A stretch of DNA of 41,320 bases. It comes from Candidatus Shapirobacteria bacterium. Lineage in GTDB: Bacteria > Patescibacteriota > Microgenomatia > UBA12405 > BS750m-G30. Every line of letters begins with the position of its first letter. Position 1 is the first letter of the stretch. Positions 7,769-38,771 of the stretch are shown one piece after another. Made by a program: the position numbers and the translations under genes. The stretch spans positions 1-41,320 of the forward strand of contig JADHWP010000003.1 of NCBI GenBank assembly GCA_016783425.1, in the 5' to 3' direction. The notes beneath the pieces are model-generated. The model made no database searches, had not been told where the DNA came from, and saw nothing but the letters and a program-made list of their open reading frames with translations.

Positions 7769-7772
7769 GCAT

Positions 7773-7812
7773 TACTTTACTACTTGACAAAAGTAAAGTA
7801 TTATTCTAAAAT
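7773..7812 (+). promoter_or_regulatory. sigma70 promoter with overlapping operator for vapBC
   Basis: TTGACA(7784)-17 nt-TAAAAT(7807); inverted repeat TACTTTACT(7773-7781)/AGTAAAGTA(7792-7800) straddles the -35. Confidence 0.8.
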
Positions 7813-7821
7813 CAAGGCATA

Positions 7822-8079
7822 ATGTTAACAACTACTCTTTCCAGTAAAAACCAAGTAACTTTACCTAAATTTTTTCTCCAAATGTTGGGATTAAGCGGAG
7901 GGGACCGACTGTTGATTGAAATAGAAGAAAACCAAATAAACCTTAAGCCAGCTAAAAAAAGCATAATTGACTTACTGGCCAAAAGTATTAAAGTGGCAAA
8001 AAGCAAAAAAGGGGTATCCTTTGAAAAGGCTTTAGCTCACACCAAAAAAACGGTTGCCCGCCAACTTGCAACTCCATGA
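7822..8079 (+). CDS. AbrB/MazE/SpoVT-family antitoxin
   Basis: LSSKNQVTLPK...LGLSGGDRL; ATGA overlap with the PIN gene. Confidence 0.9.
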   Translation: MLTTTLSSKNQVTLPKFFLQMLGLSGGDRLLIEIEENQINLKPAKKSIIDLLAKSIKVAKSKKGVSFEKALAHTKKTVARQLATP

Positions 8080-8489
8080 AAAATACTATCCTGATTGACA
8101 CTAACCTAATTCTCCGCCTCTTGATCGGTGATATTCCCATTCAACTAAAAAAATCCCAGCAGTTATTTAAAAAAATAGAAAATAAAAAAATAACTGGGCT
8201 AATTAGCATTTTAGTAATCAACGAGCTAATCTGGATTTTAGAAAAATTTTACCATCAGAAAAAATCAGAATATATTCCTTTAATTTTAAGGCTAATTTCT
8301 TTAAAAAATACTAAAATATTAGAAATCAAGAAGCAAGAATTAATTCAGATTTTAAGAAAAATGAAAGATGCAAATTTAGATTTTACTGATTTATATTTAC
8401 TTTTCTCCAGCCAAAAACTTAAAAACAAAATTGCCTCATTTGACAAAAAACTAAACTACCACTCGCGTCTTCCAGGCTCAAGTTTTTGA
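8076..8489 (+). CDS. PIN-domain (VapC) toxin
   Basis: LIDTNLILR, INELIWIL, DFTD, SFDKK. Confidence 0.9.
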   Translation: MKNTILIDTNLILRLLIGDIPIQLKKSQQLFKKIENKKITGLISILVINELIWILEKFYHQKKSEYIPLILRLISLKNTKILEIKKQELIQILRKMKDANLDFTDLYLLFSSQKLKNKIASFDKKLNYHSRLPGSSF

Positions 8490-8492
8490 GGA
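8470..8492 (+). repeat. 23-bp direct repeat copy 2 (orphan amrA 3' end, FQAQVFEEE*)
   Basis: Exact match to 7739-7761, continuing GGAATAA to an in-frame stop. Confidence 0.95.
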
Positions 8493-8897
8493 GGAATAAC
8501 GGGTCGGCCTGATAACAACAATGTCTTTCATCGAATAATCTTTAATATTTTTAGTAACTAATTTAAGATTGTAAAGCTTGGCGGTGGCGGCAATTAAGCA
8601 ATCCAATAAATAAACCCGTTTTTTCTTGCGGGCAAATTGCAAACGATAATCACCGGCAATTTCGGCTATTACTTCATCTATCGGCAAAACCCCAAAGCGG
8701 CTTATCAGCAAATTTAGTTTCTCTTTTTCCTCTTTAGAAGCCTTGCTTAAAATCTCTGCCACACTGACAGCGGAAATGGCAATTTCCCCTTTTTTAATCC
8801 AACCCTTGACTAGAGCGGCAACCGGTTCCCTTCCCCAAAAAGACTCCAAAATAACATTAGTGTCCAACAAATACTCAGGAGCGATGGCGATTTTCAT
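8478..8897 (-). CDS. PIN-domain (VapC) toxin
   Basis: LLDTNVI, SVAEI, DCLIAATA, LVTKNIKDY. Confidence 0.92.
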   Translation of the reverse strand: MKIAIAPEYLLDTNVILESFWGREPVAALVKGWIKKGEIAISAVSVAEILSKASKEEKEKLNLLISRFGVLPIDEVIAEIAGDYRLQFARKKKRVYLLDCLIAATAKLYNLKLVTKNIKDYSMKDIVVIRPTRYSSSKT

Positions 8898-13402: not shown

Positions 13403-14257
13403 TTAAATATCTTCCATCACGGGCTCATCTTCAACAAATTCCGCAGGCAAACCAAGTTTTTTGAAATAATCAACCATAGCCATGCAGGCAAATTTTTCGG
13501 TCGAATAATGGGTTCCGCCCAAAATATTGATTTTATGCTTTTCAGCAAACTCATGGGCTTTTTTAGAAAAGTCATTTTTTAAAGCTACGCCAGTTACAAA
13601 AACATTTACCCCTTCTTTGGTAATCTTTTCCAGCATTTCAACCTCATTGCCGCCGCCAGTAATCAGGGCAACAACCCCATTTTTTATTTCATCATCACCA
13701 TATTTATACAAACTAACCCCATGGCCTACCGCAAACTCAAATTTTTCCTTTACCTCATAAACAGTTGCTAAATTGGTTTTTCCAAAAACTCCATACAAAG
13801 AGCCAAAATAAGGAGCAAAAGCCTTTTCCGGCTTTATCCCAAGAACTTTTGCTAAACTAACACTGGTTGAATAATCGCCAAAATTATCCAAAGGCACATG
13901 AAGGTTGTAAATAGAAATTCTTTTGTTTTTAAATTGCCGTAATAAGTCTCTGTCCATCTGCTGAAAAACTTCAGGCGCTTTTCTGATATCCCAAATAGAG
14001 GGATGGTGAACAAAAAGCATTGCGTCACAAGTACCACCAATCAAAATTTTTTGCATAACTTTTTTTGAAGGAAAAACAGCCGTGTAAACTTTATTTATCT
14101 TATTGGCAAAATCACAAACCAAGCCCATTGATCTTTTTTTAAAATTATCGCAAAGAAAATCAGCCACAGAATCCATATGCTGTGCCCATTCATCACTCAT
14201 TTTCGGAGTAATAAAATCTTTCTCAAGCTGTTGATATAATTGAGTTATTTTCATCAC
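13403..14257 (-). CDS. Nif3-like dinuclear metal protein
   Basis: FVHHP, HVPLD, GTHYSTEK. Confidence 0.88.
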   Translation of the reverse strand: MMKITQLYQQLEKDFITPKMSDEWAQHMDSVADFLCDNFKKRSMGLVCDFANKINKVYTAVFPSKKVMQKILIGGTCDAMLFVHHPSIWDIRKAPEVFQQMDRDLLRQFKNKRISIYNLHVPLDNFGDYSTSVSLAKVLGIKPEKAFAPYFGSLYGVFGKTNLATVYEVKEKFEFAVGHGVSLYKYGDDEIKNGVVALITGGGNEVEMLEKITKEGVNVFVTGVALKNDFSKKAHEFAEKHKINILGGTHYSTEKFACMAMVDYFKKLGLPAEFVEDEPVMEDI

Positions 14258-14303
14258 AATGTTTTGATTTTACTTTCAAACAAAGAGTGTGTCAATATAA
14301 AAT

Positions 14304-15128
14304 GTGAGACTGGGAGCTCATTTATCCATTGCGGAGGGAATTGAAAACGCTTTAAAAGACGCTAAAACCATTGGCGCTAATACTTTACAAATCTTTTCCG
14401 GCTCACCCAGAAGCTGGGAATTTCTAAAAAGAAGCAGTATAGAGCTGAAGAGATTTAGAGATTTAGCTAAAAAAAATGATGTTTCCCCCATCTTCGTTCA
14501 CGCTAAATACTTAGTTAATTTATCCAGTCAAGACCCTCAAATCAGGCAAAAATCAATTAATTCTTTAATCGAAGATTTAGATTTTTGCCAAAAAACAGGA
14601 GCCAGCGGAGTTATTTTTCATCCTCATCCCCAAAATTTATCTTTGCTAACCAAAAGCATTGAGAAAGTACTAGCCTCTACCCCAAAATCTACTTATTTAA
14701 TTTTGGAAAACTCGGCCCAGATAAAACTGGAAAAAATAGGAGAGATTATTAAAGTTATCAAAAACAGCCGTTTAAAATTTTGTTTGGATACGGCCCACGC
14801 TTATCAAGCCGGATATGATTTGGCCAAGGAAAAAGGAGTTAAGAAAGTTTTTGGGATTATTAAGACTAAAATCGGCTTTGAACGCTGGGTGGTTATTCAC
14901 GCCAACGACTCCAAAACCGACCTTGGCTCTCGTCACGATCAACACGAGAATATTGCCCAAGGGAAACTAGGGGCCTTACCGTTTACCATCCTTCTTCAAC
15001 ATCCAGTTTCCAAAAAACTACCATTTATTTTGGAAACTCCGGCGATCAGAACCGAGAGCTTGCCGGGCGGCATTAAAAATTTAAATACTTTAAGAAAATT
15101 AAGCCAGGTCAACTGGCACGTGATATAA
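14304..15128 (+). CDS. nfo: endonuclease IV
   Basis: GAHLS, QIFSGSPR, HAKYLVNL, ENSA, DTAH, HANDSK, DQHENI, ILETP. Confidence 0.95.
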   Translation: MRLGAHLSIAEGIENALKDAKTIGANTLQIFSGSPRSWEFLKRSSIELKRFRDLAKKNDVSPIFVHAKYLVNLSSQDPQIRQKSINSLIEDLDFCQKTGASGVIFHPHPQNLSLLTKSIEKVLASTPKSTYLILENSAQIKLEKIGEIIKVIKNSRLKFCLDTAHAYQAGYDLAKEKGVKKVFGIIKTKIGFERWVVIHANDSKTDLGSRHDQHENIAQGKLGALPFTILLQHPVSKKLPFILETPAIRTESLPGGIKNLNTLRKLSQVNWHVI

Positions 15129-15137
15129 TTTAGTATT

Positions 15138-15214
15138 GGGCGGTTAGCTCAGTTGGCTAGAGCGTTTCTTTGACGTAGAAAAGGTCACAGGTTCGAGTCC
15201 TGTACCGCCCACCA
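15138..15214 (+). tRNA. tRNA-Val(GAC)
   Basis: Cloverleaf with acceptor GGGCGGT/ACCGCCC, anticodon arm TTTCT-TTGACGT-AGAAA, TTCGAGT loop and encoded CCA; TGATATAAT promoter at 15121. Confidence 0.97.
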
Positions 15215-15458
15215 CAAACCTGAATCTCTTGAAGCCCTCACTCTTTCCAAAAAGTCGGCTCGAACAGTCCCGCAAAGCGGGACTAAAAGAGAAAAGAAAA
15301 ATTTAAAAAGAGCAAAAATCAAAAAGGCAATCTGATAAAATTATCTTGGCTGTCCAAAATTAGAATTGCGTACGGTTTAAATTTAACGCATTTTTATTGA
15401 AAAATGTAAGAGGTTTTGATAAAATAATTTACAACTCTCAAAAAGGAGGTAATGAAGT

Positions 15459-15701
15459 ATGTTAATAGACATAAGTGGCTGGATCGGGATGGTGTTAATT
15501 TTAGTAGCATATTATTTAGTCTCAGGTAAAAAGGTAACCGAAGAAGCAAAGTCTTATCAGCTTTTGAATCTCTTTGGAGCAATAGGGATTGTGGTGAATA
15601 CTTACTTTTACCGAGCGTGGCCGGCGATGACATTAAATATAGTCTGGGCTTTGATAGCATTGAAAACTCTACTCTTAAGAGAACGAAAGAGCTTAAGCTA
15701 A
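15459..15701 (+). CDS. small 3-TM membrane protein (CBU_0592-like)
   Basis: GWIG..LILVAY...YQLLNLFGA...LNIVW; AGGAGGT RBS. Confidence 0.8.
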   Translation: MLIDISGWIGMVLILVAYYLVSGKKVTEEAKSYQLLNLFGAIGIVVNTYFYRAWPAMTLNIVWALIALKTLLLRERKSLS

Positions 15702-20099: not shown

Positions 20100-20743
20100 A
20101 ATTCATATTTCTCCTTTCAATATTTATTTTTCAAGTAGAAACTTTTTCTACTTCTACTTATTTTACCAGGTAAGAACATATTCTTACCTTAATTGACCAA
20201 AAATCAGATTGTTGAGATTAAAAAAGAAAAATCTTGCTCGGTTGATAGGTACAGCTTGGCTTAAACTATTACTAGTCTTACACCGGCTGCCCATGCCCAG
20301 TAGTCTCCTGGGAACCTGATAATGATTCCTAATCTCGGGGTGGGCTTCCCGCTTCAGATGCTTTCAGCGGTTATCCTTTGGAAACATAGCTACCCGACAA
20401 TGCTCTTGACAGAACAATCGGTACACCAGAGGTTTCCCCAACCAGGTCCTCTCGTACTGTGGTCAGCTCCCCTCAAGAATCAACGGTTACTGCGGATAGA
20501 GACCGAGCTGTCTTACGACGCTCTGAACCCAACTAACGCGGCGCTTTAATGGGCGAACAGACCAACCCTTGGCCACTTCTTCATGGCCAGGATGCGCCAA
20601 GTCGACATCGATGTGCCGATCCGGGCCGTCTATATGGACTATCGGGCCCGACCAGCCTGTTATCCCCGGGGTAGTTTTTATCCGTTAAGCCCCATGTTTA
20701 ACCATTCAAGCATGGGGGATCACTAAGACCTGCTTTCGCATCT

Positions 20744-20819
20744 CTCCGACGTAACGTCGGAGTGGTATCACCTTAAATCTCTTCAATCTATTGAATGAAA
20801 GAAATAAAAGGATTAACCA
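20744..20819 (-). other. 76-nt insertion in 23S domain V (near E. coli ~2370)
   Basis: Splits conserved GAGC|AGATGCGAAAGCAGG; forms two hairpins. Confidence 0.75.
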
Positions 20820-21993
20820 GCTCGACTTGTAAGTCTCGCAGTTAGGCTAGCTTCTGGCTTTGCCCTTACAGTTCGGTTTCCATCCGAACTAAGCTAACCT
20901 TTGTACGCTCGCGCTACCTTTTAGCAAGCGGCTGCCCCAGCCAAACTGACCACCAAACACTGTCCCTGTCCGAGTATTCATCGGACTTAGGTGAGACGCA
21001 AACATGATAAAGGGTGGTATTCCACTGGTCTCCGACGTAACGTCGGAGTCCCACCTATTCTCGACAATTACCAAATTCTAATCAATGTTAAGTTTCAGTA
21101 AAACTCCACGGGGTCTTTTTGTCCTGCAGTAACTAACCGGCATATTCACCGGTATTTCAATTTCGCCGGATGAAGGGTCGAGACAGTTGCTCGGTCGTGA
21201 AGCCTTTCATACTGGTCTGAACTTACCAGACAATGGACTTCGCTACCTTTGGATCCTTAGAGTTAGGACCGTCGTTCACCAGGGCTTCAGTTTGAGGCAG
21301 GTCGAAATTTCGACCCACCACGCCCCTTAACCTTCTGGCACCGGACAGGCTTCAGCCCCTATACTTCCCCTTACGGGTTTGCAGAGACCTGTGTTTTTGA
21401 TAAACAGTCGCCGAGCACTCGTTCGCTGCGGCCCCGCAGTTGCGGGGCAAGGCATCTCCCGAAGTTACGCCTAGCTTTTTTGCCGAGTTCCTTGACCCTC
21501 CTTCTTCCGATCGTCTTAGTATACTCAACCTGCCCACCCGTGTCGGTTTTCGGTACGAACGCTATTTTTTCTCCCAACGAAGCTTTTCTGGGTACCAGAA
21601 CCCGATAGGATTTCCCAAACAAGTTTGGAATTCCGGCAAGTCTTACTTTAAAACGGAATGGCGGATTTGCCTACCACTCCTAGCTCAACTAACCGATGCG
21701 GCAATTTCACTGCCACACCCCACCTCTCCCGATACGTCCCTCCCTTGGTAGTAACGAAAAAACAACGGGGCTGGAATATTAACCAGCTGTCCATCCACTA
21801 CCCCCGCATGTTGCGGGACTCATGTTAGGCTCGCCTAACCCTCAGACGACGAACGTGGCTGAGGAAACCTTGGGCTTTCGACGATTTAGATTCTCACTAA
21901 ATTTACGCTACTCATGCCGGCATTCTCGCTTCCCAGCGCTCCACCCCGCCTCACAGCGGGACTTCACTGCCCTGGGAACGCTCCCCTACCAAC

Positions 21994-23416: not shown

Positions 23417-23755
23417 AAAGCAGGTTTGGGCTTCTCCCTTTTCGCTCACCGCTACTAAGGGAATAATTATTATTTTCTTTTCCTCTGGGTACTAAGATGT
23501 TTCAGTTCCCCAGCTTACCCCCCCGACGTTACGTCGGGGTCCTCCGATTCAACATCGAAGGGGGTTATCCCATTCGGACACCGCCGGATCACAGGTTACA
23601 GACACCTCCCCGACGCATATCGCCGTCTGTCGCGTCCTTCTTCGGCTCTTATCACCAAGGCATCCACTATTTGCTTCTTTGCAAGATTCTATCTTTTTTT
23701 TCAACAATCTGATTCTTTAGTCAATTACTTTACTTTTAAGTTGTCAAGGTGCGGG

Positions 23756-26042: not shown

Positions 26043-27001
26043 GTTTTGCCAGAAAAAAACTAATTAGTCCTCAAAAAAATAAGAAAAAGAGAGATTTAAT
26101 TAAAGAGCGCAAAATTATTGGTTGGACGCTTTTAATCAGTATTGGCTTAAGCGCTCTTTTTTACCTGGCCGCTAACAAGCCAAAGGTTAATTTTAGTTTT
26201 AAACTCCCCTCCTTTTCCAGCCCTCTTCCCAAAAACCCTTCTATTGGGAAAAAGGCGCCAGCGCAACTGGAGAGTTTAGTCTTTGAAATTATTGGCCAAG
26301 ATAAAGAAAGCTGGGCCATTTGGGTAGAAGATTTAGAAAATGATTTTATCTGGAGTTATCAGGATAAAAAAATCTTTCCGGCTGTTTCTTTAATAAAACT
26401 ACCCGCCATAACCACTCTTTATCAACTAATTGAACAAAAAAAGTATCAGTTAGATCAGGAAATGATTCTAACCAAAGAGGATATTCGCGGCGGAGCGGGA
26501 AGCTTAAACAGTCAGCCAATCGGAACAAAATTAACCTTAGAAGAATTGGCCCGCCTTTGTTTAAACCAATCGGACAACACCGCCTTTGCCATGGTTAAAA
26601 GATTACTCACTAACCAAACTATTTCCAGAAATACCTTCTCTTTGGGTTTAATTAATACTTCTTTGGAGGAAAATACCACTACCGCTCAAGACATGGCTCT
26701 GTTTTTTAAACTGCTTTATCAGGGTGAGCTTTTAAACCAGGAGTTTACTAATAAGCTTATAAATCACTTGACCGACACTGCTTTTGAAAACCAAATTCCC
26801 CAGGGGGTGCCCCAGGGAATAAAAGTGGCTCATAAAGTAGACATAGAAATAGACAGCCTGGCGGATGCGGGGTTAATTTTAGTTCCCCAAAGACCAATTA
26901 TTCTCGTTTTTCTCACTAAAAGCTTAAATCAAACTGAAGTTGAAAAAACCATGGTTGATCTGACCCGCGAAATCTACTGGTTTTTGGTTTCTGCTGATTG
27001 A
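26024..27001 (+). CDS. membrane-anchored class A beta-lactamase-like serine hydrolase
   Basis: TM, SLIK (SxxK), SDN and NTTTA; AHKV in the KTG position. Confidence 0.85.
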   Translation: MVEKTLSFARKKLISPQKNKKKRDLIKERKIIGWTLLISIGLSALFYLAANKPKVNFSFKLPSFSSPLPKNPSIGKKAPAQLESLVFEIIGQDKESWAIWVEDLENDFIWSYQDKKIFPAVSLIKLPAITTLYQLIEQKKYQLDQEMILTKEDIRGGAGSLNSQPIGTKLTLEELARLCLNQSDNTAFAMVKRLLTNQTISRNTFSLGLINTSLEENTTTAQDMALFFKLLYQGELLNQEFTNKLINHLTDTAFENQIPQGVPQGIKVAHKVDIEIDSLADAGLILVPQRPIILVFLTKSLNQTEVEKTMVDLTREIYWFLVSAD

Positions 27002-29160
27002 TCTTCTTCTTTAGCTAAAAACCAGGAAGAGGAGCAATGTTCCTGGGGTGCGGTTCCCTGCAAAAAATATTCCTCGCCCACTTGCGGACAACCTTCGCAA
27101 GCAAGGGTGCCGGTTGAACGGCAAATGGGAATTTTAACTATATTTTCCGGTGTTTCCCAGCCGGTGTTGGGATATGCTTCCAGCATTAGATCAGTAATTC
27201 TTCTCCAAATAGGAGTAGCGCCGGTAATCCCCGAGGCAATCCGACTCATGGGAGTATTGTCGTTATTGCCCACCCAAACCGCCACTAAAAATTCGGGCGT
27301 GTAGCCAATCGCCCAGTTATCCCGCAAACCATTACTGGTTCCGGTTTTCACCGCCACTTTCTGATTAGGAATATTAAGCAGGGAATTTAAGCTAAAAGCC
27401 CGAGCTCGAGCATAATTATCGGAAAGAATATCATTAAGCAAAAAGGCTACCCCGGAATCTAAAACTAACTCTTTCTGGCCTTGATTTTTTAACTCATATA
27501 ATTTTTTTTCTCCGACCGAAGGCTTAACGGTTAAAAAGGGAGTTAACTCAACCTTGTTTCCCAAATTGGCCAAAACACTATAAGCTTGAGCCAAATCAAT
27601 CATTTTCACTTCTCCGCCCCCTAAGGTTAAAGAAAGGCCAAAGCGGGAGCGATCCGCCCAGGTAGTAATTCCCATTAGCTCTCCCTGTTTAATCATTTCT
27701 TCTACTCCCAAAGCGGCCAACACTTTTACCGCCGGAATGTTAAAAGAAGAAGCTAAAGCGGTGCGCAAAGAAACATTGCCATGGTATTGGCCATCATAAT
27801 TTTGGGGCGAATAAGGCTCCTGGTAAGGCAAGTGAAAGGTAATAGCCGTATCCGGAATAATGGTGGCCGGGGTAAAACCGCTTTGCAAGGCTTTAGCGTA
27901 ATTAATCACCTTGATCGCCGAGCCAGGCTGACGCGAACTTAAGGTAACATTAACATTCCCATCATTGGTAAAATCAAAATAATCTTTACTCCCCGCCATG
28001 GCCAAAATCTCCCCGGTTTTGGGCCGAATAATTAAAGCCGCCCCGTTCCCCACTCCTAAATGGGCAATATGACCTAACTCTTCTTTAATAATCTGCTCAA
28101 CTTGTCGTTGCAGATCCAGATCCAAACTGGTGACTACTTCCAGGCCCCCCTCCTCTAAAGTTTGCTCTCCCCATTTCTCCACCAGCAAATCCTTAACATA
28201 AAAAACAAAATGGGGCGCTTTTAAAGAATCATTGCTTAAACTTAAACGCAAAGGCTCTTGAGTCGCATTCTCTGCTTCACTTTCGGTTAAATAACCCGTT
28301 TCCACCATCGCCGACAACACCCGTCCTTGTCTTTCTTTAGCTAAAGTAGGGTAAGCCCCAAAAGGAGAAAAGCGGGTGGGCCCGGCGGGCAAACCAGCAA
28401 GTAAAGCGCCTTCGGCCAAATTAACATTTCGTACCGATTTGGCAAAATATTTTTGCGCCGCCTCTTCAATCCCGTAAGCAGTTCCGCCGTAAGACACTTC
28501 ATTAAAATACATTTGCAGAATCTCGTCTTTGGAAAAGCGCTGTTCTGCTAAAATAGCTAAAATCGCTTCCTTTATTTTTCGCCGCCAACTTTTTTCAAAA
28601 TCCAAAAGGGCGTTTTTCACCAGCTGTTGGGTAATGGTGGAACCGCCCACCGGCGCTTTTTGAGGATTGGTCAAATTGTGCTTTACCGCTCTTGCTATTC
28701 CTCGCCAGGACAAACCACTGTGATTATAAAATTCCCGGTCTTCAACCGCAATGGTCGCCTCAATTACAAAATCCGGAATCTCGTTCAAAGGGATTAAGGT
28801 TCGATTTTCCTCATGGTAAATTTTGTAAAGCAAATTTCCCTTACGATCGTAAATCTTGGTGGTTAGCGCCAAAGGGCGATCAATTAACTTTTGCGGAGAG
28901 GGCAAATCTTTTAAGATATTTAAGTAAAAGCCCCAAAAAGTAATCAGAGCCAGAGTAACGCCCAAAAACAAACTTAACCAGGAGCGCCGAAAACTAACCT
29001 TAGGAAAAGGGATCTTCGGGAGGAAAGAAAACAAGGGAAGCAAAATCAAACTGCCGACTTTTTGAAAAGTTACCAAAGCAAAACGCAAAAAAAGATAAAT
29101 AGGCCGACCGAGCCAATTTAATATTTTTATTATAAACAGTAAAAAGGGTGAGAAAAACAT
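26974..29160 (-). CDS. class A penicillin-binding protein (PBP1A family)
   Basis: EDREFYNH, GGSTITQQLVKN, RKIKE; SAIK, SFN, KTG. Confidence 0.95.
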   Translation of the reverse strand: MFFSPFLLFIIKILNWLGRPIYLFLRFALVTFQKVGSLILLPLFSFLPKIPFPKVSFRRSWLSLFLGVTLALITFWGFYLNILKDLPSPQKLIDRPLALTTKIYDRKGNLLYKIYHEENRTLIPLNEIPDFVIEATIAVEDREFYNHSGLSWRGIARAVKHNLTNPQKAPVGGSTITQQLVKNALLDFEKSWRRKIKEAILAILAEQRFSKDEILQMYFNEVSYGGTAYGIEEAAQKYFAKSVRNVNLAEGALLAGLPAGPTRFSPFGAYPTLAKERQGRVLSAMVETGYLTESEAENATQEPLRLSLSNDSLKAPHFVFYVKDLLVEKWGEQTLEEGGLEVVTSLDLDLQRQVEQIIKEELGHIAHLGVGNGAALIIRPKTGEILAMAGSKDYFDFTNDGNVNVTLSSRQPGSAIKVINYAKALQSGFTPATIIPDTAITFHLPYQEPYSPQNYDGQYHGNVSLRTALASSFNIPAVKVLAALGVEEMIKQGELMGITTWADRSRFGLSLTLGGGEVKMIDLAQAYSVLANLGNKVELTPFLTVKPSVGEKKLYELKNQGQKELVLDSGVAFLLNDILSDNYARARAFSLNSLLNIPNQKVAVKTGTSNGLRDNWAIGYTPEFLVAVWVGNNDNTPMSRIASGITGATPIWRRITDLMLEAYPNTGWETPENIVKIPICRSTGTLACEGCPQVGEEYFLQGTAPQEHCSSSWFLAKEEDQSAETKNQ

Positions 29161-30951: not shown

Positions 30952-31560
30952 CTACTCAATTATTTTTGCTTTTCCGTTAACAACTGATAATGCCTGATTA
31001 TTTGTTAATGGAATAATTTTATATTGCGACTTTTTCTTAAATTCATCAATAATCAATTTTTCTTTTTTACAATAATGAGGGGAAATAATTACATTAGTTA
31101 AATTTAATCCGGTTAAATCAGTTAAATTGACATCATTTTCATCAAAAGGACCGGCAATCTCAATATTTGGACCAGCCAAAATACTACCGGCGCTTACTCC
31201 AAAATAAAGTTTGCCGGCTCTTACAAGCTTAATAACTACCTGATCAAAGCCGGTTTCCCTGACCTTTTTAAGCAAGTAAAAAGTATTCCCGCCGCAAACG
31301 TAAATAACATCAAAATCCTCAACCTCTTTAAACGAAACAGGTTTATCCAGACTCAAGGTTTTTATGTTCTTTTTGAAAATACCTAAATCCAGAAGTTCTT
31401 TTTTCGATTCATCAACATATTTTAATTCTTCTTCATTTCTGGCCGCCGCGGGAACAAAAATGATTTTAATTTGGGAAACTGGCTTGTCAATCAATTGTAA
31501 AAACTGATTCGCGATATTTTTGCTTGCCAGCCCTGTAGACGTTAATAGTAATTTTGTCAT
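30952..31560 (-). CDS. peptidase S51 family (peptidase E-like)
   Basis: GGNTFYL, GVSAG nucleophile, PHY. Confidence 0.9.
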   Translation of the reverse strand: MTKLLLTSTGLASKNIANQFLQLIDKPVSQIKIIFVPAAARNEEELKYVDESKKELLDLGIFKKNIKTLSLDKPVSFKEVEDFDVIYVCGGNTFYLLKKVRETGFDQVVIKLVRAGKLYFGVSAGSILAGPNIEIAGPFDENDVNLTDLTGLNLTNVIISPHYCKKEKLIIDEFKKKSQYKIIPLTNNQALSVVNGKAKIIE

Positions 31561-31619
31561 AGTTTAGAAATTTCGCCTAACCAGCCATTATCTAAAAATA
31601 TTTCATAAAACTATCTTGA

Positions 31620-31649
31620 TTTTAGCAGAAGCCTTAATTTTCTTCAATA
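31620..31649 (-). repeat. 30-bp direct repeat copy (orphan PBP 3' end plus promoter)
   Basis: 28/30 identical to 32369-32398 with an 18-bp exact core; reads TTGAAG-17 nt-TAAAAT on the minus strand. Confidence 0.9.
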
Positions 31650-31687
31650 TAAAAATGGTGGTGGTCGTGCTTCCGAAAAAGCTCTGT

Positions 31688-32032
31688 TTAAAATTTTTCT
31701 TTTTCTATGATTTCTTGAACTTCTTTCTTTAAATCCCTGATATCACGAGTTGAAGCATCCCAAATAAGCCCCATGTTGACCCCAAAATAACCGTGAATCA
31801 AAACATCTCTCATGCCAGCAATTTTTCTCCACGGAATTTTTGGATATTTATCCTTAAGTGAAATTGGAATATTCTTTGTGGCTTCACCGATAATTTCTAA
31901 TCTCCTGACAACAGCGTCTTGAATTTGGGTAGACCTTGAAAATTCGTCTTCAGAAACACCCTCAAGATACTTCTCAATTTCAGAAATGCTCTCTAAGATA
32001 TGGGAAAGAAAAATTTTAGGATCTTTTTTCAT
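31688..32032 (-). CDS. HEPN/DUF86 (HepT-like) RNase toxin
   Basis: DAVVRRLEIIGEA, IPW, RDVLIHGY (Rx4HxY). Confidence 0.93.
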   Translation of the reverse strand: MKKDPKIFLSHILESISEIEKYLEGVSEDEFSRSTQIQDAVVRRLEIIGEATKNIPISLKDKYPKIPWRKIAGMRDVLIHGYFGVNMGLIWDASTRDIRDLKKEVQEIIEKEKF

Positions 32033-32309
32033 AAATTATTTCTTGCTCTTTTAAAATAATGTCTTTAAGCAGCGGATGAATACATCCATAGGTTAACAAG
32101 TCAACCCTTCTTTTTAGCATATCTTCAAGATCTAGCTTTAAGCCCACCAAATCCAACAAACTCTTTCTTTCACCATACTCTATTAATAAATCAATATCGC
32201 TGCTTTTTTTCGTATCGCCCCTTGCGCATGATCCAAAAATGGCCGCCTTAACAACTCCTTGGCTTTTTAAAGTAGGAATGATCTTGGCGCTAATATCCTG
32301 GATGGTCAT
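32016..32309 (-). CDS. minimal nucleotidyltransferase (MntA-like) antitoxin
   Basis: FGSCARG...SDIDLL (GSx10DxD), VDL. Confidence 0.93.
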   Translation of the reverse strand: MTIQDISAKIIPTLKSQGVVKAAIFGSCARGDTKKSSDIDLLIEYGERKSLLDLVGLKLDLEDMLKRRVDLLTYGCIHPLLKDIILKEQEIIYEKRS

Positions 32310-32368
32310 AGATAAATCTTAACATATAACAACCGCAAAACAAATTAAAAAAAGTCCTTGTAGCGAAT

Positions 32369-32398
32369 TTTTAGCAAAAACCTTAATTTTCTTCAATA
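32369..32398 (-). repeat. 30-bp direct repeat copy spanning the PBP stop codon
   Basis: Encodes IEEN* plus downstream bases; matches 31620-31649. Confidence 0.9.
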
Positions 32399-34584
32399 AT
32401 CGCACCGGGGGCAACAAAAGGATCGAGGTTGTTGGGAACGTAAATGTTGGTAGTGGGCCAGGGCTGGTCGGTATTTTCAATGTTCGCCGGGCAGTCAAAA
32501 CAAAAAATAGTTCCGAGCGGATCTCTGTTCATCATGTGCTCCTGCCACTCCAGGTTTTCTTTTTGTTCTCCTGGTTGCACTGGTTGATTAGTATCTTTCT
32601 GGATTAGTACTGGTTGACGCAAAGCCACTGATTTTACCGGCTCGGTTCCCTTAATAAAATATTCATAGCGGCCGGCGCACCCTCCTTCGGGGGGCAGCAT
32701 CCCGGTTTCATTGCAAACGGTTTTTCCCACCACTGTATCCGGCCGAGCCGGAAAACGCTGGGGTTTGTCTTTTAAAACAAAACTGATAATTTTGTTCCAG
32801 ATCGGGGAAGCGCCGGTTACCCCGGAAGCGACCGCGCTCATGAAAGTATTGTCATTGTTGCCCACCCAAACGGTCACCACTATTTCCGGGCTATACCCCA
32901 CCGTCCAGTTGTCCCGCTTGTCATTGGTAGTTCCGGTTTTTACCGAAACCTCGGGATGATCCTCAACCACCAGCAAAGAATTTGACCCAAAAGCGGCGCT
33001 GCGGGCCCCATTATCCAGCAAAATATCATTAATTAAATAAGGAACCTCGGGAGGCAAAACCCTTTTTCCCAAAGTAGATTTCTTTTGCGCCAAAACCTCT
33101 CCGTTGCGGTCCTTTACTTCCAAAATAGAAACCAGATCCTGGCGAATACCTAAATTGGCCAGCACCCCAAAAGCCGTCGCCATCTCCGTCATTTTTACCT
33201 CTCCACCCCCTAAAGTTAAAGACAGACCGTAATTTTCCGGATCAGCAAAACTCTCAATTCCCATCGCCGAAGCGGTGGCGATAAAACTTTCCAGTCCGTT
33301 AACAGCCAGCATTTTTACCGCCGGCACATTAAAAGAGTTGCCCAGCGCGTAGCGCAACTGCACCACTCCGTGAAAAAGCCCGTCGTAATTGCGCGGGCAA
33401 TACCCTTTCTGCCCGGGAACGGAAAAGCAAGTAGGCACGTCATTAAAAGTAGTCGCCGGCGTTACCCGGCCGGTCACCAACCCGGTCGCGTAATTAAGGG
33501 GCTTAATCGCCGAGCCCGGCTGACGCAAAGCGGTAGTGACGTTAAACTTGCCATCAATATCATCGGCAAAATAATCTTTACTGCCCACCATCGCCAAAAT
33601 TTCCCCGCTTTTGGGCTCGGTCACCAAAACCGCGCCGTTGGAAACATGGGCTCTTTGCAATTTGGCTACTTCGGAAGCAACCGTACTTTGGGCAAAATCC
33701 TGAATAGTTAAATCCAAACTGGTTTTTACCCGCAACCCCCCCTGATCGACCATGGCCTGACCATATTCTTCTACCAACTGTTCTTTAACGTAAAAAACAA
33801 AATGCGGGGCTTTAATTTTGGCGCCCGGAAAAGCGAAATTTAATTCTTCTTCCCGGGCTTGCCTGGCTTGCTCTTCATTAATAAAACCGCCTTCCCTCAT
33901 TTCGCTTAAAACCAAATATTGACGGCTTAAAGCTACATCCGGGTGAGCAAAAGGAGAAAAGCGGGTGGGTGAGGCGGGCAAACCGGCAAGCAAGGCGCTT
34001 TCGGCCAAAGTTAAATTGGCCACATTTTTATCAAAGTAAGTTTTGGCGGCCGCTTGAATCCCCCAAGCTGTTCCCCCGTACGGAGTTTGGTTAAAATACA
34101 TTTCCAAAATTTGCTTTTTGCTGTAAATTACCTCCGTGGCAATGGTTAAAATCGCTTCTTTAATTTTTCTCCTCCAAGTCCGCTCGGGCGTCAGCAAAGC
34201 ATTTTTTACCAACTGCTGGGTAATGGTGGAGCCGCCCTGAAGCTTCTTTTTAAAAACAATGTTGTAAACCGCCCGGGATATTCCTTTTAAATCAAAACCA
34301 AAATGCTTGTAAAAGCCCCGATCCTCAATCGCCAGCGTCGCTTGAATTAAATGTTCGGGTACTTCCTCTAGCTTTACCGGCACCCGGTTTTTTTCAGTAT
34401 AAATTTCATAAAGCAAACTGCCATTTCGGTCGTAAATTAAAGTAGAAGCCGGGTAGGGGAAAGTGCTTAGCCTGGTTGGGGAAGGTAAATAGGCAATTAC
34501 CAGACCAAAGCCCGCCAAAACCAACCCCAAAAAAGAAAAAATAATTATTCTTCTCAATTTTTTGGGAATCGCCCTGAATTTCAT
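32383..34584 (-). CDS. class A penicillin-binding protein (PBP1A family)
   Basis: EDRGFYKH, GGSTITQQLVKN; SAIK, SFN, KTG. Start set at the ATG 6 nt after TATAAT. Confidence 0.95.
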   Translation of the reverse strand: MKFRAIPKKLRRIIIFSFLGLVLAGFGLVIAYLPSPTRLSTFPYPASTLIYDRNGSLLYEIYTEKNRVPVKLEEVPEHLIQATLAIEDRGFYKHFGFDLKGISRAVYNIVFKKKLQGGSTITQQLVKNALLTPERTWRRKIKEAILTIATEVIYSKKQILEMYFNQTPYGGTAWGIQAAAKTYFDKNVANLTLAESALLAGLPASPTRFSPFAHPDVALSRQYLVLSEMREGGFINEEQARQAREEELNFAFPGAKIKAPHFVFYVKEQLVEEYGQAMVDQGGLRVKTSLDLTIQDFAQSTVASEVAKLQRAHVSNGAVLVTEPKSGEILAMVGSKDYFADDIDGKFNVTTALRQPGSAIKPLNYATGLVTGRVTPATTFNDVPTCFSVPGQKGYCPRNYDGLFHGVVQLRYALGNSFNVPAVKMLAVNGLESFIATASAMGIESFADPENYGLSLTLGGGEVKMTEMATAFGVLANLGIRQDLVSILEVKDRNGEVLAQKKSTLGKRVLPPEVPYLINDILLDNGARSAAFGSNSLLVVEDHPEVSVKTGTTNDKRDNWTVGYSPEIVVTVWVGNNDNTFMSAVASGVTGASPIWNKIISFVLKDKPQRFPARPDTVVGKTVCNETGMLPPEGGCAGRYEYFIKGTEPVKSVALRQPVLIQKDTNQPVQPGEQKENLEWQEHMMNRDPLGTIFCFDCPANIENTDQPWPTTNIYVPNNLDPFVAPGAIIEEN

Positions 34585-34606
34585 CTTTCTATTATACACC
34601 GCGTTC

Positions 34607-34823: not shown

Positions 34824-37800
34824 TCACTCTTGAGATGTTTGTGGACCACTTAAAGATGGCGTGACTGGCTCTGATTGCCCTATTACTGGTGTCGGTGTTG
34901 ACGGTTGCGGCGTTAGTGCTGGTGGTGCCGAAGGCAGTGCTGGTGGCGCTACCTGCATCGGCGGCTCTGCTGGCTGGGGCTGCGCCGCTTCCTGGGCTTC
35001 TTTTAATTTGCGCTCCTCTTCTTTCCTTTTTAAAATCTCTTTCGGATCCGAAGTAATTAGTTTGTGCTCCTGGGGAGAAGCAATTATTCTAATGGCTACG
35101 TGATTTTGGCCGGCAAAGAAAATCCCCTCCCCAATGTTAGCGGCCAGCAAAAACTGCCGCTCTCCCTGGGAAAGGTAAAAAAGGTCCCCCACCTGATCAA
35201 TCGCCGCCGGATGCTGTTTAAGTAAAATCTGAATGGAAGAGTTTTTTACAATCGCCCCGCCGTATTTAGAAGTCAAAAAATCATCCACATCTTGAGTAAC
35301 CGTGGTCAAGCCCAAATAATATTTTCGCGCTCTTTTGGCCACCCCAAAAAGAAAACGGGCCGAATCCGGGTAGCGCATCAAATACCAGGCCTCATCAATC
35401 ACCAAAACCCGGCGTTTCAGCTCTTTTCTCACCTTGTTCCAAATAAAATCCAAAATAATGTGCATCGCAATCGGCCGCAGCGCCTCTTCCAAATCCTGGG
35501 TCCCAAAAACCACTAATTTATTTTCAATATTAATATTGGTTTGAGTATTAAAAAGGCCGGCAAAAGCGCCTTTAATAAATTTTTCCAACCGGGCGGCTAA
35601 CGAAGCGGCGGTCTCCTCTTCCATCCCAATCAGCACCTTATAAAGGTCTTCAATCAAGGGCATTTCTTTACCAGTTTGAGTTTCCGGGTCCATAGTAATT
35701 CCCTGGTTTTTATAGGTGGCTACTAAGCCTCTGTCTAAAATCGCTTCTTCTTGAGGAGACATTTTGCCCATAATAATCCGAAACAAAGCATACAAGGAAA
35801 GGATTTTACGGGTCAGCTCATTTTCCCCTTCTTCGGGCTTGATTAGCTCTAAATCAAAGGGATTAATTTTGGCCGGAGAGTTAAAGCCAAAAGTGATGTA
35901 TTGGCCGCCCAAAGCTTGACACAAAGTTTCATACTCATTTTCCGGATCAATCACCATCACTTCAGTATCAAACATTAACGAGCGCAAAGTCTCTAATTTG
36001 ATCATATACGAGTTATGAACAAACATTCCTCCCCGGCCGGCTAAAAAGACCCCGTTATCAACAGTTAAATCATAAACCCAGGGCCGATTATTTTTTAATT
36101 TTTTAACCTTAGTAATCGGGTCCCAAAAAAGACTACTTTCAGCCAAAGTTCGCAACTGGCTTAGAATCATTTTTGCTTTTTGAATCTTTTGCTTTCTTTC
36201 TTCCCAGGTTTTTAAAACATATTTTTTGGCTAAAAATACTTTCTGGTAAGTAAGGTTTGCGTTAGGATTTCTGTTTAAAGCAGAGAAAAATCCTTTGCTA
36301 AAATCTTTCTGATAAACTCCCAAGACCTTAAACGACTCTTTAATATCGCTAACTACCTGGTTAGGAGTCAAGTAAGTTTGAACGGCAATTCTAGAAACAA
36401 TTAAAGCGTTTTTTAATTTTGGCTTAACCTTTTTCTTTTTAGTTACTGCCCAGGAAGAGCCTAAGGCTTGCCAGGCTTGAGCATTAAGCTCCTTATCATT
36501 ACTAACAAGACCAATCATTTCTTCAATAGCCGGCAAATTCTCCAGGCGAGGCTTAACTAAAGTTTGCCATTTTTCTAGTTCATCAATGCGCTTTTCGCAA
36601 TCTTTAATTACTCTCTTTAAAAAGGCGGGAGAAGGATTAAACGCTCTTCTTTTTAAAGCCGAAATGGCCGTGGGAATAGCCACGTTGGTAGTGGGGTAAA
36701 GAATTTTAGCCAACTTACTAAATAAACTTTGGAGCTCGGGAACAATATCAACATTAGTGTTTTCCAGCTTAGTTAAAAGATTAGCCAGGGCCTTCTTTTT
36801 TCTTTGGCTAAAAAAGCTAATATTATCGACAAAATTTTGTAAATGTTTTTTCCCGGAAACAGTTAATTGCCAATAAGTTCGCTTCTTGGGTTTTTTAGAA
36901 CCAACCGCCTGCTTTCTTACTTTTCTAATTCGCGAGACAATACCAAAATAATTAAGCAGATAGCTAAGCTGGCTAATTAATTCTTTTGATTTTGATGTGG
37001 CTGAAACTTGGTGAGCCTCTACTGTTCCATCGCCCTCAAAATAACCTTTGATAAGCTCTGCAATAATTTCTTTAGGTGAAGAAAAAATAACTTCAGGAAC
37101 TTTTTTATTGCCTGCTTTTTGACCAATTCCCAGGCTAATTACTATCTGGGCCAAAAGCCGGCTGGCAAAACGAATCTCTTTATCATGAGGCGAAAAAGAA
37201 TTAAAGCCCAGTTTTCTTCCAATAGCAGCCGCTTTTTTAAGGAGCTTTTTGTCACCCGAGCTAATCGCTATCATTGACGATTGAACGGTTCCCTCGGCCA
37301 CAATCAAACCCAAAAAGAAAGCCAATTCTTTGTCAATCTTCAGCTGGCAACTTAAGCATTTATTTTGCTTAACCCGGGGTCCTAAATAAATATCTTTTAA
37401 TTGATTTTTACTTAACTTAATTTGGGTTTGCTCGCAACACCAATTAAAAAAGCTAATTGGCACTCCTCGATCCTGAACATATTTATAAAAATAACAAAAC
37501 AAGGAATGCTTTTTACCTTTTAATTGCTCCCTAAATTGAGTCATTAAAGGAACAGCATTATAAACAAAAAGATTAGGACTTTTTTCCAAAAGCTTTAAAA
37601 GATTAACCTTTTGAAAAAGAGAAGCGCTTGTTCCAATTTGGCGCGCTAAAGGAACAAATTCCCCCGTCGTAACTGCTTCTCCCTTGCTTAAATTCAGTTC
37701 TCCATTTTTTAAAACCACTAAATTATGATCGCCGGTAATCGTCATTTGCCGGCCGGAGGCGGTAGTAATTTGATAAAGATCGTCAGGAGCTACTTTTCGC

Positions 37801-38771
37801 GCGGCAACCGTTACCTTTGACCACTCGGTTTTAAGTTTAGAGTTAAAAGTATAGACCTCCAAACCCGGCGGGAAAATTACTCCCTTTATTTCCTCATCTA
37901 TGCTGACTGTTTTATGTTTTTTCATCAGCTTATTAATTAAAGGGCCAATGGCGGTTAGTTTTATTTCCCCGTCTTGGCGAATCAACACCGGCTCAAATCC
38001 AGCCAGACTTTTCCCCGCCCCGGATTTGGCAAAAACCACGGTATTGTAATTCTCCATGGTAAACCGGTCAAAAACGACTAAAGAACCGTTGTGCTGATTA
38101 ATTCCGTACATAATCCCTTTATCATCAGAAAGCTCCGAAGAAACAAAGGGGAAAGTGGTTGATAGCGTAGCGGTGGGCATGTTTCGGGTGACATTTAGAT
38201 CGTCCTTGCACAAAGGAAGCACGGTTCTAAACCCTTCTTCCATTTCCAAAATGGCTGTTTTCGGAATAATCATCAAGGCCCCCAGCGAGGCCTGCAACTC
38301 TTTGCTGATCCGGTCCAGTTCAGCCACTGATTCCGCCGAAACGGTAATGTAAAGCCCAAATTGAAAAAACTTTTCCACCCCTTTGGCCAACTTTTCCTGC
38401 AAAGACAGCGCATCTTCCAACTTGGCCTGGGTCGTGGGATCAACTACTTTGCCTCGCTGGATATCAGTAGAAATTTCTGCTTCCATCCGGGCAATAGTTT
38501 TGCGCATTTCGTCCAAAACCCCCTTGCCTTCCACCGGGTAAATATACATCGCAATATCCAGCTCCCGATCAAAATTAACTAAAGGAGAGAGCCAGTTGGG
38601 CGAAACATACCGCGGGTAATTAACCACGTAAAAAGTGCGGTGAAAACGATTATTAATCCGCAAGTAGTTAAAGTCTACTTCTACGGCCGAGGGAGCGATT
38701 ATGTCCTTAATCGTGACCAGGCCCGGAGCCAGGGCTGAAGGCGGAAGTACAGCCTTATCCTTAAATTTCAT
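34824..38771 (-). CDS. VirB4-like (DUF87) ATPase containing an intein
   Basis: Walker A AKSGAGK|S, VIDPENEY, INPFD, Walker B VIDEAW, KRARKY, TQD; Pro-rich tail. Confidence 0.93.
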   Translation of the reverse strand: MKFKDKAVLPPSALAPGLVTIKDIIAPSAVEVDFNYLRINNRFHRTFYVVNYPRYVSPNWLSPLVNFDRELDIAMYIYPVEGKGVLDEMRKTIARMEAEISTDIQRGKVVDPTTQAKLEDALSLQEKLAKGVEKFFQFGLYITVSAESVAELDRISKELQASLGALMIIPKTAILEMEEGFRTVLPLCKDDLNVTRNMPTATLSTTFPFVSSELSDDKGIMYGINQHNGSLVVFDRFTMENYNTVVFAKSGAGKSLAGFEPVLIRQDGEIKLTAIGPLINKLMKKHKTVSIDEEIKGVIFPPGLEVYTFNSKLKTEWSKVTVAARKVAPDDLYQITTASGRQMTITGDHNLVVLKNGELNLSKGEAVTTGEFVPLARQIGTSASLFQKVNLLKLLEKSPNLFVYNAVPLMTQFREQLKGKKHSLFCYFYKYVQDRGVPISFFNWCCEQTQIKLSKNQLKDIYLGPRVKQNKCLSCQLKIDKELAFFLGLIVAEGTVQSSMIAISSGDKKLLKKAAAIGRKLGFNSFSPHDKEIRFASRLLAQIVISLGIGQKAGNKKVPEVIFSSPKEIIAELIKGYFEGDGTVEAHQVSATSKSKELISQLSYLLNYFGIVSRIRKVRKQAVGSKKPKKRTYWQLTVSGKKHLQNFVDNISFFSQRKKKALANLLTKLENTNVDIVPELQSLFSKLAKILYPTTNVAIPTAISALKRRAFNPSPAFLKRVIKDCEKRIDELEKWQTLVKPRLENLPAIEEMIGLVSNDKELNAQAWQALGSSWAVTKKKKVKPKLKNALIVSRIAVQTYLTPNQVVSDIKESFKVLGVYQKDFSKGFFSALNRNPNANLTYQKVFLAKKYVLKTWEERKQKIQKAKMILSQLRTLAESSLFWDPITKVKKLKNNRPWVYDLTVDNGVFLAGRGGMFVHNSYMIKLETLRSLMFDTEVMVIDPENEYETLCQALGGQYITFGFNSPAKINPFDLELIKPEEGENELTRKILSLYALFRIIMGKMSPQEEAILDRGLVATYKNQGITMDPETQTGKEMPLIEDLYKVLIGMEEETAASLAARLEKFIKGAFAGLFNTQTNINIENKLVVFGTQDLEEALRPIAMHIILDFIWNKVRKELKRRVLVIDEAWYLMRYPDSARFLFGVAKRARKYYLGLTTVTQDVDDFLTSKYGGAIVKNSSIQILLKQHPAAIDQVGDLFYLSQGERQFLLAANIGEGIFFAGQNHVAIRIIASPQEHKLITSDPKEILKRKEEERKLKEAQEAAQPQPAEPPMQVAPPALPSAPPALTPQPSTPTPVIGQSEPVTPSLSGPQTSQE
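36012..38009 (-). mobile_element. intein (666 aa) with LAGLIDADG homing endonuclease
   Basis: Begins SLAGFEPV; block B TITGDHNL; FFLGLIVAEG and LIKGYFEGDG; ends VYDLTV...FVHN followed by extein Ser. Confidence 0.93.

Follow-up and report, generated by a model that had tools for sequence, protein, structure and literature searches.

How a two-gene addiction module that carries no mobility gene enters a bacterial chromosome is poorly understood. This question is posed by a 41,320-bp stretch of DNA from a Candidatus Shapirobacteria bacterium (the window), which is one entire contig of a 624-kb genome (G000; 33 contigs, 90% complete) and in which a predicted toxin-antitoxin (TA) pair of the MNT-HepT (MNT-HEPN) type sits between two copies of a 30-nt direct repeat, at the boundary between a penicillin-binding protein (PBP) gene and a gene for an S51 peptidase. 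With moderate confidence, we favor the explanation that a foreign TA segment was inserted here with long target duplication, an architecture known from restriction-modification (RM) systems.

The architecture itself is observed directly. A 30-bp direct repeat bracketing the TA pair had been claimed in an earlier reading of this DNA (the original prediction), and its copies are indeed found at 31620-31649 and 32369-32398, with 28 of their 30 positions identical and their starts 749 bp apart. The minus strand carries every gene around the cassette. The gene for PBP2, a class A PBP (32383-34599; Pfam Transgly 7.6e-62, Transpeptidase 6.4e-18) whose C-terminus in G000 reads ...PGAIIEEN*, runs into the upstream repeat copy (a', 32369-32398), and, as predicted, this copy comprises the I-E-E-N codons, the stop at 32383-32385 and a further 14 nt. 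An extended -10-like element of the cassette itself, TGTTAAGAT (32316-32324), lies a few bases ahead of the start codon of the MNT gene (32016-32309), which is followed by the HepT gene (31688-32032) and then by the 38-nt spacer that separates the HepT stop from the downstream repeat copy (31650-31687) and in which a site scan found no terminator-like site. The promoter-like downstream copy (b', 31620-31649; promoter proper 31619-31647) precedes the 5' leader (31561-31618) of the S51 (peptidase E-like) gene (30952-31560; Pfam Peptidase_S51 2.5e-37), all of these features lying on the minus strand.

On the gene strand, the 30-mer reads as a sigma-70-like promoter with predicted activity. In the downstream copy the promoter scan returned TTGAAG-17-TAAAAT with a TG (31647 to 31619, minus strand), in line with the proposal that this copy is a plausible promoter of the peptidase gene, while the PBP2 stop falls within the promoter spacer of the upstream copy. 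The -10-like hexamer is TAAAAT downstream and TAAAAA upstream; this sole change within a consensus hexamer sits in the upstream (left) copy, where promoter function is not needed. The 30-mer is probably, first and foremost, the promoter of the downstream transcription unit, inside which the PBP2 frame ends in G000. The description of the repeat as a gene-end duplication thus survives in part: the PBP2 stop does lie inside it, but the 30-mer is equally the putative peptidase promoter and, in the sister genome G001, is duplicated elsewhere than at the end of the PBP gene.

The repeat exceeds chance by far. At distances of 300-2500 bp the real genome holds 20 repeat pairs with at least 27 matches, against a total of one when the whole genome (624 kb) was simulated ten times under a Markov-3 model; at larger distance bins the pair counts in this comparison were 4, 7, 1 and 1. 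The borders of the repeat are sharp and the duplication stops at 30 nt, the score of the downstream flanks outside it being reached by 1345 of 2000 shuffles. A longer, decayed duplication was rejected on this evidence, since the flanks are no more alike than shuffled sequence. Furthermore, the repeat is not a dispersed multicopy element. A search of the whole of G000 with a 29-nt core, allowing up to three mismatches, returned two copies only, and across 132 genomes of the order the core gave, beyond the pairs in G000 and G001, two weak matches against one match of the reversed control pattern (which matched in 0 of 61 and 1 of 132 genomes); a dispersed mobile promoter was rejected as a candidate on these counts. 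No weak extra copies were found in the islets of G000, G001 and G002. Scans with the 30-mer pattern returned two short metagenome contigs without similarity to the G000 genome and, among genome contigs, only the G001 record and two records of unrelated taxa; among viral contigs they returned none.

The cargo appears to be an intact pair with a predicted TA function. The MNT gene encodes an antitoxin-type nucleotidyltransferase of 97 aa (Polbeta PF18765 6.7e-17, NTP_transf_2 PF01909 1e-15) and the HepT gene a toxin-type RNase of 114 aa with a HEPN domain (HepT-like PF01934 2.7e-30); the two open reading frames (ORFs) overlap by 17 nt, with HepT immediately 3' of MNT in one operon. Their translations show G26-S27-x10-D38-x-D40 in MNT and R75-x4-H80-x-Y82 in HepT, matching what we take to be the catalytic motifs, GSx10DxD and Rx4HxY, respectively. 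In TA systems of this type, HepT toxicity is neutralised by MNT through AMPylation. Between the repeat copies lie 690 bp filled by the TA pair, with no gene fragments, and an Rfam search of the cassette region gave no match. The cargo looks foreign to G000, because G001, the sole other genome of the genus examined (94% complete), gave 0 matches to HepT, because the nearest cassettes stand in other taxa and because the GC content is lower in the islet between the PBP genes (0.30-0.38) than in the PBP2 gene (0.45-0.54). HepT is present in only 9 of 61 related genomes. The closest cassettes at the DNA level among the genomes searched (70-72%) are those of G002, from another genus of the same family, and G055, from another family of the same order; both stand at unrelated loci without the 30-mer or any flanking repeat. 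A similar -10 element occurs at the matching place before the MNT start in both, and homology to them at the DNA level starts ~16 nt ahead of the MNT ATG. In protein searches with HepT, the best outside matches (89% and 84% identity) lie on contigs of 2.2 kb and 1.4 kb, the remaining matches reach at most 71% and viral relatives at most 42%.

We infer the following order of events at the PBP2-S51 locus. Before insertion, a single 30-bp stretch would have served as the last four codons and stop of PBP2 and, at the same time, as the peptidase promoter from -35 to -10. A foreign segment of ~720 bp, bearing MNT-HepT and its own short promoter, would then have entered between the two genes at a point directly past the -10 hexamer, with the 30 bp thereafter present on both sides. 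The left copy would retain the PBP2 stop, and the right copy, together with the conserved leader, would retain the peptidase promoter. Both neighbors would thereby be left undamaged, which in so compact a genome was probably a condition for the survival of the insert. Indeed, as the genome has almost no spacer DNA, only inserts that duplicate such a shared stretch would spare the genes on both sides. The target could have been copied through staggered breaks and fill-in, or through template switching during repair or the uptake of foreign DNA.

The MNT-HepT cassette has a counterpart within the window. The amrA cassette (7739-8499, plus strand) carries an AbrB/MazE-type antitoxin (7822-8079) and a PIN toxin (8076-8489) between repeats at 7739-7768 and 8470-8499 that are 27/30 identical and spaced by 731 bp. 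The left copy of this cassette coincides with the AMMECR1/Memo gene's native end (the orthologue in G002 ends in TFQAQIFSEP*), and the right copy also spans the last codons, at the 3' end, of a second PIN gene, which is convergent (8478-8897). The PIN toxin inside the cassette was seen to terminate within the repeat in a different frame from this convergent gene. The original prediction had described the two cassettes as close in unit size, within 20 bp, and as unrelated in their repeats; the spacings do differ by just 18 bp, and the two repeats share no 8-mer or longer.

Elsewhere in G000, units encoding a methylase, a kinase and an IMPase stand between unique repeats of 42-67 nt, as do units of a 7.3-kb island that holds another MNT-HepT pair. 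The methylase unit (contig C3:1320-3856, L057; 2.45 kb) encodes a LexA-S24-N6_N4 methylase fusion of 476 aa and a 305-aa ORF, without any recombinase, and may represent either an orphan methylase or a small RM-like module that has an SOS-type switch built in. Its repeat is made up of an extended -10, the leader and, from the gene that follows, the first five codons. The two copies match each other at 42/42 positions and differ from that in G001, where an empty site with one repeat copy and collinear flanks on both sides is observed. A VapBC pair of G005 lies between the copies of a ~40-nt repeat that takes in the -10 and first codons of the kinase gene downstream, and the upstream NUDIX-like gene has its stop inside the left copy; at this kinase gene, G024 carries one copy only. 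An MNT-HEPN pair in G021 is flanked by a 70-nt repeat that carries TTGACA-17-TAAAAAT on the gene strand, just past the stop of the upstream gene. In each case the duplicated stretch appears, from its position and motifs, to hold signals needed by both neighbors. The expectation that cassette-free orthologous sites with a single repeat copy would exist is therefore borne out for the C3 unit (in G001) and the G005 VapBC pair (in G024), but not for the MNT-HepT locus itself, where none was found.

Are TA loci more often bracketed in this way than other DNA? A check along the lines proposed with the original prediction gives a positive answer. Repeats were scored around each locus (flank 600 for the toxin loci of G000, flank 700 for those of its relatives), a score of at least 20 being counted as positive. 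G000 has 17 toxin loci (10 PIN, 3 HepT, 3 ParE and one ParE match below the cut-off), of which two, both in the window, are positive (scores 23 and 24, against 9-14 for the remaining 15). Among the relatives, 2 of 12 HepT loci are positive (76 and 52; a thirteenth, a 45-aa fragment at a contig end, was excluded), as are 2 of 29 PIN loci (21 and 20), which were taken one per genome from ~90 matches. The background, scored with matching geometry, is 22 positives in 3000 random G000 positions and 0 in 271 non-TA windows of the relatives; an earlier background with flank 600 gave 1 in 400. TA loci in this order are thus enriched for strong bracketing direct repeats (6/58 vs 22/3000 random positions; Fisher p ~1e-5), although the effect is modest, at about one locus in ten, and the p-values are rough given that related genomes are not independent samples. 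One positive locus, in G009, is bracketed by two copies of a dispersed 18-23-nt repeat family present at 17 sites (e.g. C1:13239, C1:14460); without this case the count is 5/58 (p ~1e-4). In G027 the 142-nt repeat consists of a multicopy palindrome and an 85-nt part present only twice. The notion of a general route for loading TA cassettes accordingly holds in its enrichment and not in its restriction to TA genes, since methylase, kinase and IMPase units share the pattern and only 2 of 17 toxin loci in G000 display it.

Several observations weigh against a simple target duplication at the MNT-HepT locus. Most TA loci (52/58) lack such a repeat, and the repeat here measures exactly 30 nt, which is not above the >30-bp threshold of the RM study (PMC2853133). 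Among the relatives compared, no cassette-free, single-copy allele of the PBP2-S51 locus was found. Instead, the sole congener G001 has two copies around other cargo, with no single-copy site. These copies lie in the orthologous neighborhood, upstream of DUF1653 and PBP1, and bracket a 197-aa half-MFS gene away from the PBP2 end. On its left, the first copy has as neighbor not a PBP gene but one for a different S51 peptidase, which at 27% identity is not an orthologue of the window peptidase. This pattern requires either a second, independent 30-bp duplication or an older duplication followed by cargo replacement. The junction between PBP2 and the repeat in G000 could, moreover, be a secondary joint, since the PBP2 orthologues end differently: that of G001, on another short contig, ends in ...PGKPE* with an S51 start codon 8 nt later and that of G002 in ...PGVGE*, so that IEEN is missing from both despite 82-90% amino-acid identity. 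Target duplication leaves one feature without an explanation, namely that the sister genome G001 uses this 30-mer again.

The DNA between the two PBP genes is itself prone to insertion. Past the S51 peptidase, the minus strand of the window carries a DUF1653 gene, a MATCAP-like gene and a second class A PBP (PBP1, 26974-29160). In six of seven more distant relatives PBP1 follows directly after PBP2, with gaps of 46-315 nt or overlapping ORF calls, which implies that all DNA between them in G000 is inserted. G002 has a different insert in this spacer, of 2.0 kb (L033, G002:C11), with two membrane-protein-like ORFs and a 129-aa ORF. Three genomes (G000, G001 and G002) were thus seen with three different fillings, and on gene order the spacer is an insertion hot spot in this family.

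It is from G001 that the strongest rival explanation derives. The 30-mer could be the boundary of recombining modules: the promoter would have been duplicated in the ancestor of the genus, or borne by each cassette, and the cargo exchanged, for example through Campbell-type integration of one-copy circles, to give a small promoter-punctuated cassette array. Four unrelated cargoes follow a copy of the 30-mer (in G000, MNT-HepT and the S51 peptidase; in G001, half-MFS and DUF1284), and both genomes have exactly two copies. The right copy is conserved: the second G001 copy and a leader of ~60 nt are ~80% identical to window 31575-31647, after which a DUF1284 gene follows, so that one promoter and leader serve a different gene in each genome. 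Thirty bp is, in addition, near the minimal length for RecA-dependent recombination. Nevertheless, we consider this explanation unlikely. Elsewhere the element was not found: the 132 genomes yield two weak matches against one control match, the contig scans yield nothing related and homologous MNT-HepT cassettes at other loci lack the 30-mer. The analogous C3 and G005 units are clean target duplications with empty sites. At position 16 the two G000 copies carry G and the two G001 copies C; this hints at separate duplications or gene conversion, although one site is too little to decide.

Could a dedicated recombinase have been at work? The copies might be the attL and attR of a larger integrative element with its own recombinase, integrated at the 3' end of the PBP gene and since decayed to the TA pair. 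It is a classic signature of integration that the repeats cover a target gene's 3' end and stop (discussed in PMC2853133). TA modules are resistant to deletion. A preferred attB would also agree with another insertion having struck this 30-mer in G001, where the half-size MFS gene resembles a remnant. We regard this as improbable, however, because the 690 bp between the copies hold no gene fragments, because the recent 42/42 C3 unit is likewise devoid of a recombinase and because the viral contigs give no related element. Tyrosine recombinases (PF00589) gave no match on the contig of the window (serine recombinases were not searched), and the matches elsewhere in G000, on contigs C5, C19 and C33, all have counterparts in relatives. 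Target copying is favored over a site-specific enzyme because ten repeat units compared have only promoter-like 8-11-mers in common and no core, because no tyrosine recombinase lies on the contig, because the unique repeats vary in length from 23 to ~85 nt and because they consist of the recipient's own sequence. From this we infer that fill-in of staggered breaks or template switching seem more likely routes than a dedicated recombinase. The argument of the original prediction against one site-specific recombinase, which had rested on the different TA types, the close unit sizes and the unrelated repeats of the two cassettes, is supported.

Propagation of a promoter independently of any insertion, with the peptidase promoter recruited in front of a resident TA pair or the reverse, is less probable again. 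Closely similar promoters ahead of unrelated genes are common in bacteria (PMC3575422), but 30 nt falls short of the 50-nt criterion of that study, and the TA pair has its own -10 element by the start codon, common to homologous cassettes. The left repeat copy bears the weaker -10. The amrA repeat is coding sequence, and the same pattern there would be left unexplained. Finally, chance, or convergent similarity of two strong promoters, has a negligible claim, for although about half of the positions in both copies belong to the consensus-like -35 and extended -10, the spacer AAAATTAAG is the same in all four and the simulations and reversed-pattern controls expect approximately zero matches.

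If target duplication is the favored explanation, what carries it out? The same architecture is seen with other cargo as well as with RNase-type TA pairs, which speaks for the host, and not the cargo, doing the work, and ultra-small genomes with DNA-uptake genes fit such a host-driven view. The proposal that DNA uptake feeds the process is met by the presence of ComEC and DprA genes in G000, which are compatible with the uptake of foreign DNA but prove nothing. Our findings also suggest how tightly packed genomes tolerate inserts, namely in that the duplicated piece is what both neighbors need. It is tempting to speculate further that the 30-mer is a reusable docking site, duplicated independently in two sister species with unrelated cargo between the copies, and that cargo is loaded at promoter and junction DNA by the host without a recombinase; this we would hold only as a tentative and rather doubtful idea. 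Were it true, junction stretches of several kinds (stop and promoter, promoter and start, convergent ends) would be duplicated around TA, methylase and other units in this order by a process that RM and TA modules share and that may be linked with DNA uptake, and long target duplication would not depend on the nuclease of the cargo.

Other features were noted in the course of this work. Adjoining PBP2 in the window is a 1315-aa ORF (34824-38771, minus strand), of which residues 4-255 and 906-1243 align to stretches of DNA that adjoin each other in G004; the ~650 middle residues are extra in G000 and could be an intein or another inserted domain. A 21-nt palindromic sequence occurs three times in the window (20743-20763, 21029-21049 and 23520-23540), two of the occurrences being identical and the third lying near a tRNA-Ala gene. 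On contig C1, an insert between rpsG and fusA (14117-15520, L056; 1.4 kb, with a 249-aa ORF without Pfam match) was rejected as a target duplication, as neither of its 105-nt copies is present at the G001 site, where the genes are 16 nt apart; the 105-nt repeats came with the insert. Short pieces of this insert recur on several G001 contigs, in the manner of a small dispersed element. The 7.3-kb island (C6:42515-49866, L058) is missing from G001, where its flanks lie ~57 nt apart; three copies of a 37-67-nt exact repeat punctuate it, and the second MNT-HepT pair lies inside. Hairpin palindromes centered on CGATCG are found inside several long repeats (L085, G027:C114; G000 C10:18897-18961; C1:14129-14233), the G027 version being present at at least 13 loci of that genome.

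The locus invites comparison with several known systems. In integron gene cassettes (attC) and the pdif modules of Acinetobacter, small cassettes, often TA pairs, lie between short repeated sites. The MNT-HepT locus is alike in having a small TA cassette beside such sites, but the 30-mer shows no attC-like or dif-like inverted repeats among the repeat pairs listed, and there is no array beyond two copies. In elements bounded by attL and attR, and in their integrase-less, cis-mobilisable derivatives, the direct repeats include the 3' end of a gene. This, as well as the re-use of one site in G001, is shared; the differences are that the contig has no recombinase of the tyrosine type searched, that no remnants are present and that repeats of different units have no core in common. 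Putative mobile promoters (Nijveen, Matus-Garcia and van Passel 2012, PMC3575422), defined by at least 80% identity over at least 50 nt, likewise place one promoter sequence ahead of unrelated genes. Here, by contrast, 30 nt only are repeated, at one locus, as copies that bracket an insert, which falls outside that definition (PMC3575422).

There remains the insertion, with long target duplication, of RM systems, which has been without a known mechanism since 2000 and has tentatively been ascribed to breakage by the restriction enzyme. The founding paper is reportedly that of Nobusato et al. (2000, Gene 259:99). The original prediction had taken the pattern seen here to be undescribed, which cannot be maintained: the survey of Furuta, Abe and Kobayashi (2010, PMC2853133) describes such insertions of RM genes, with a significant excess of flanking repeats and, in H. 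influenzae, 46-bp repeats whose overlap with the 3' end of a neighboring gene is 15 bp or 2 bp. Most of its cases are from naturally competent species, and DNA breakage by the RM system is suggested there as the cause. Of the features by which that study recognizes these insertions, flanking direct repeats and the absence of a mobility gene from the insert are found at the MNT-HepT locus, and empty sites are found for the C3 unit (vs G001) and for the G005 VapBC pair (vs G024). The likeness extends to an addiction-type unit, to the lack of a transposase or integrase, to variable, target-derived and genome-unique repeats of tens of bp and to the hosts, mostly competent in the one case and equipped with ComEC and DprA in the other (PMC2853133). 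For TA cargo with long target duplication, we found no description in the literature searched, from which supplements and subscription papers were excluded; PMC2654758 and PMC3874152 mention the RM work only in their reference lists. Unlike the RM cases of PMC2853133, this locus carries an RNase-type TA pair, so breakage by a restriction enzyme cannot be the cause. The host here is ultra-small, and the duplicated stretch, a stop and a promoter, is common to both neighbors. What is new is thus TA cargo within an architecture known for RM systems, an extension of long target duplication rather than a surprise.

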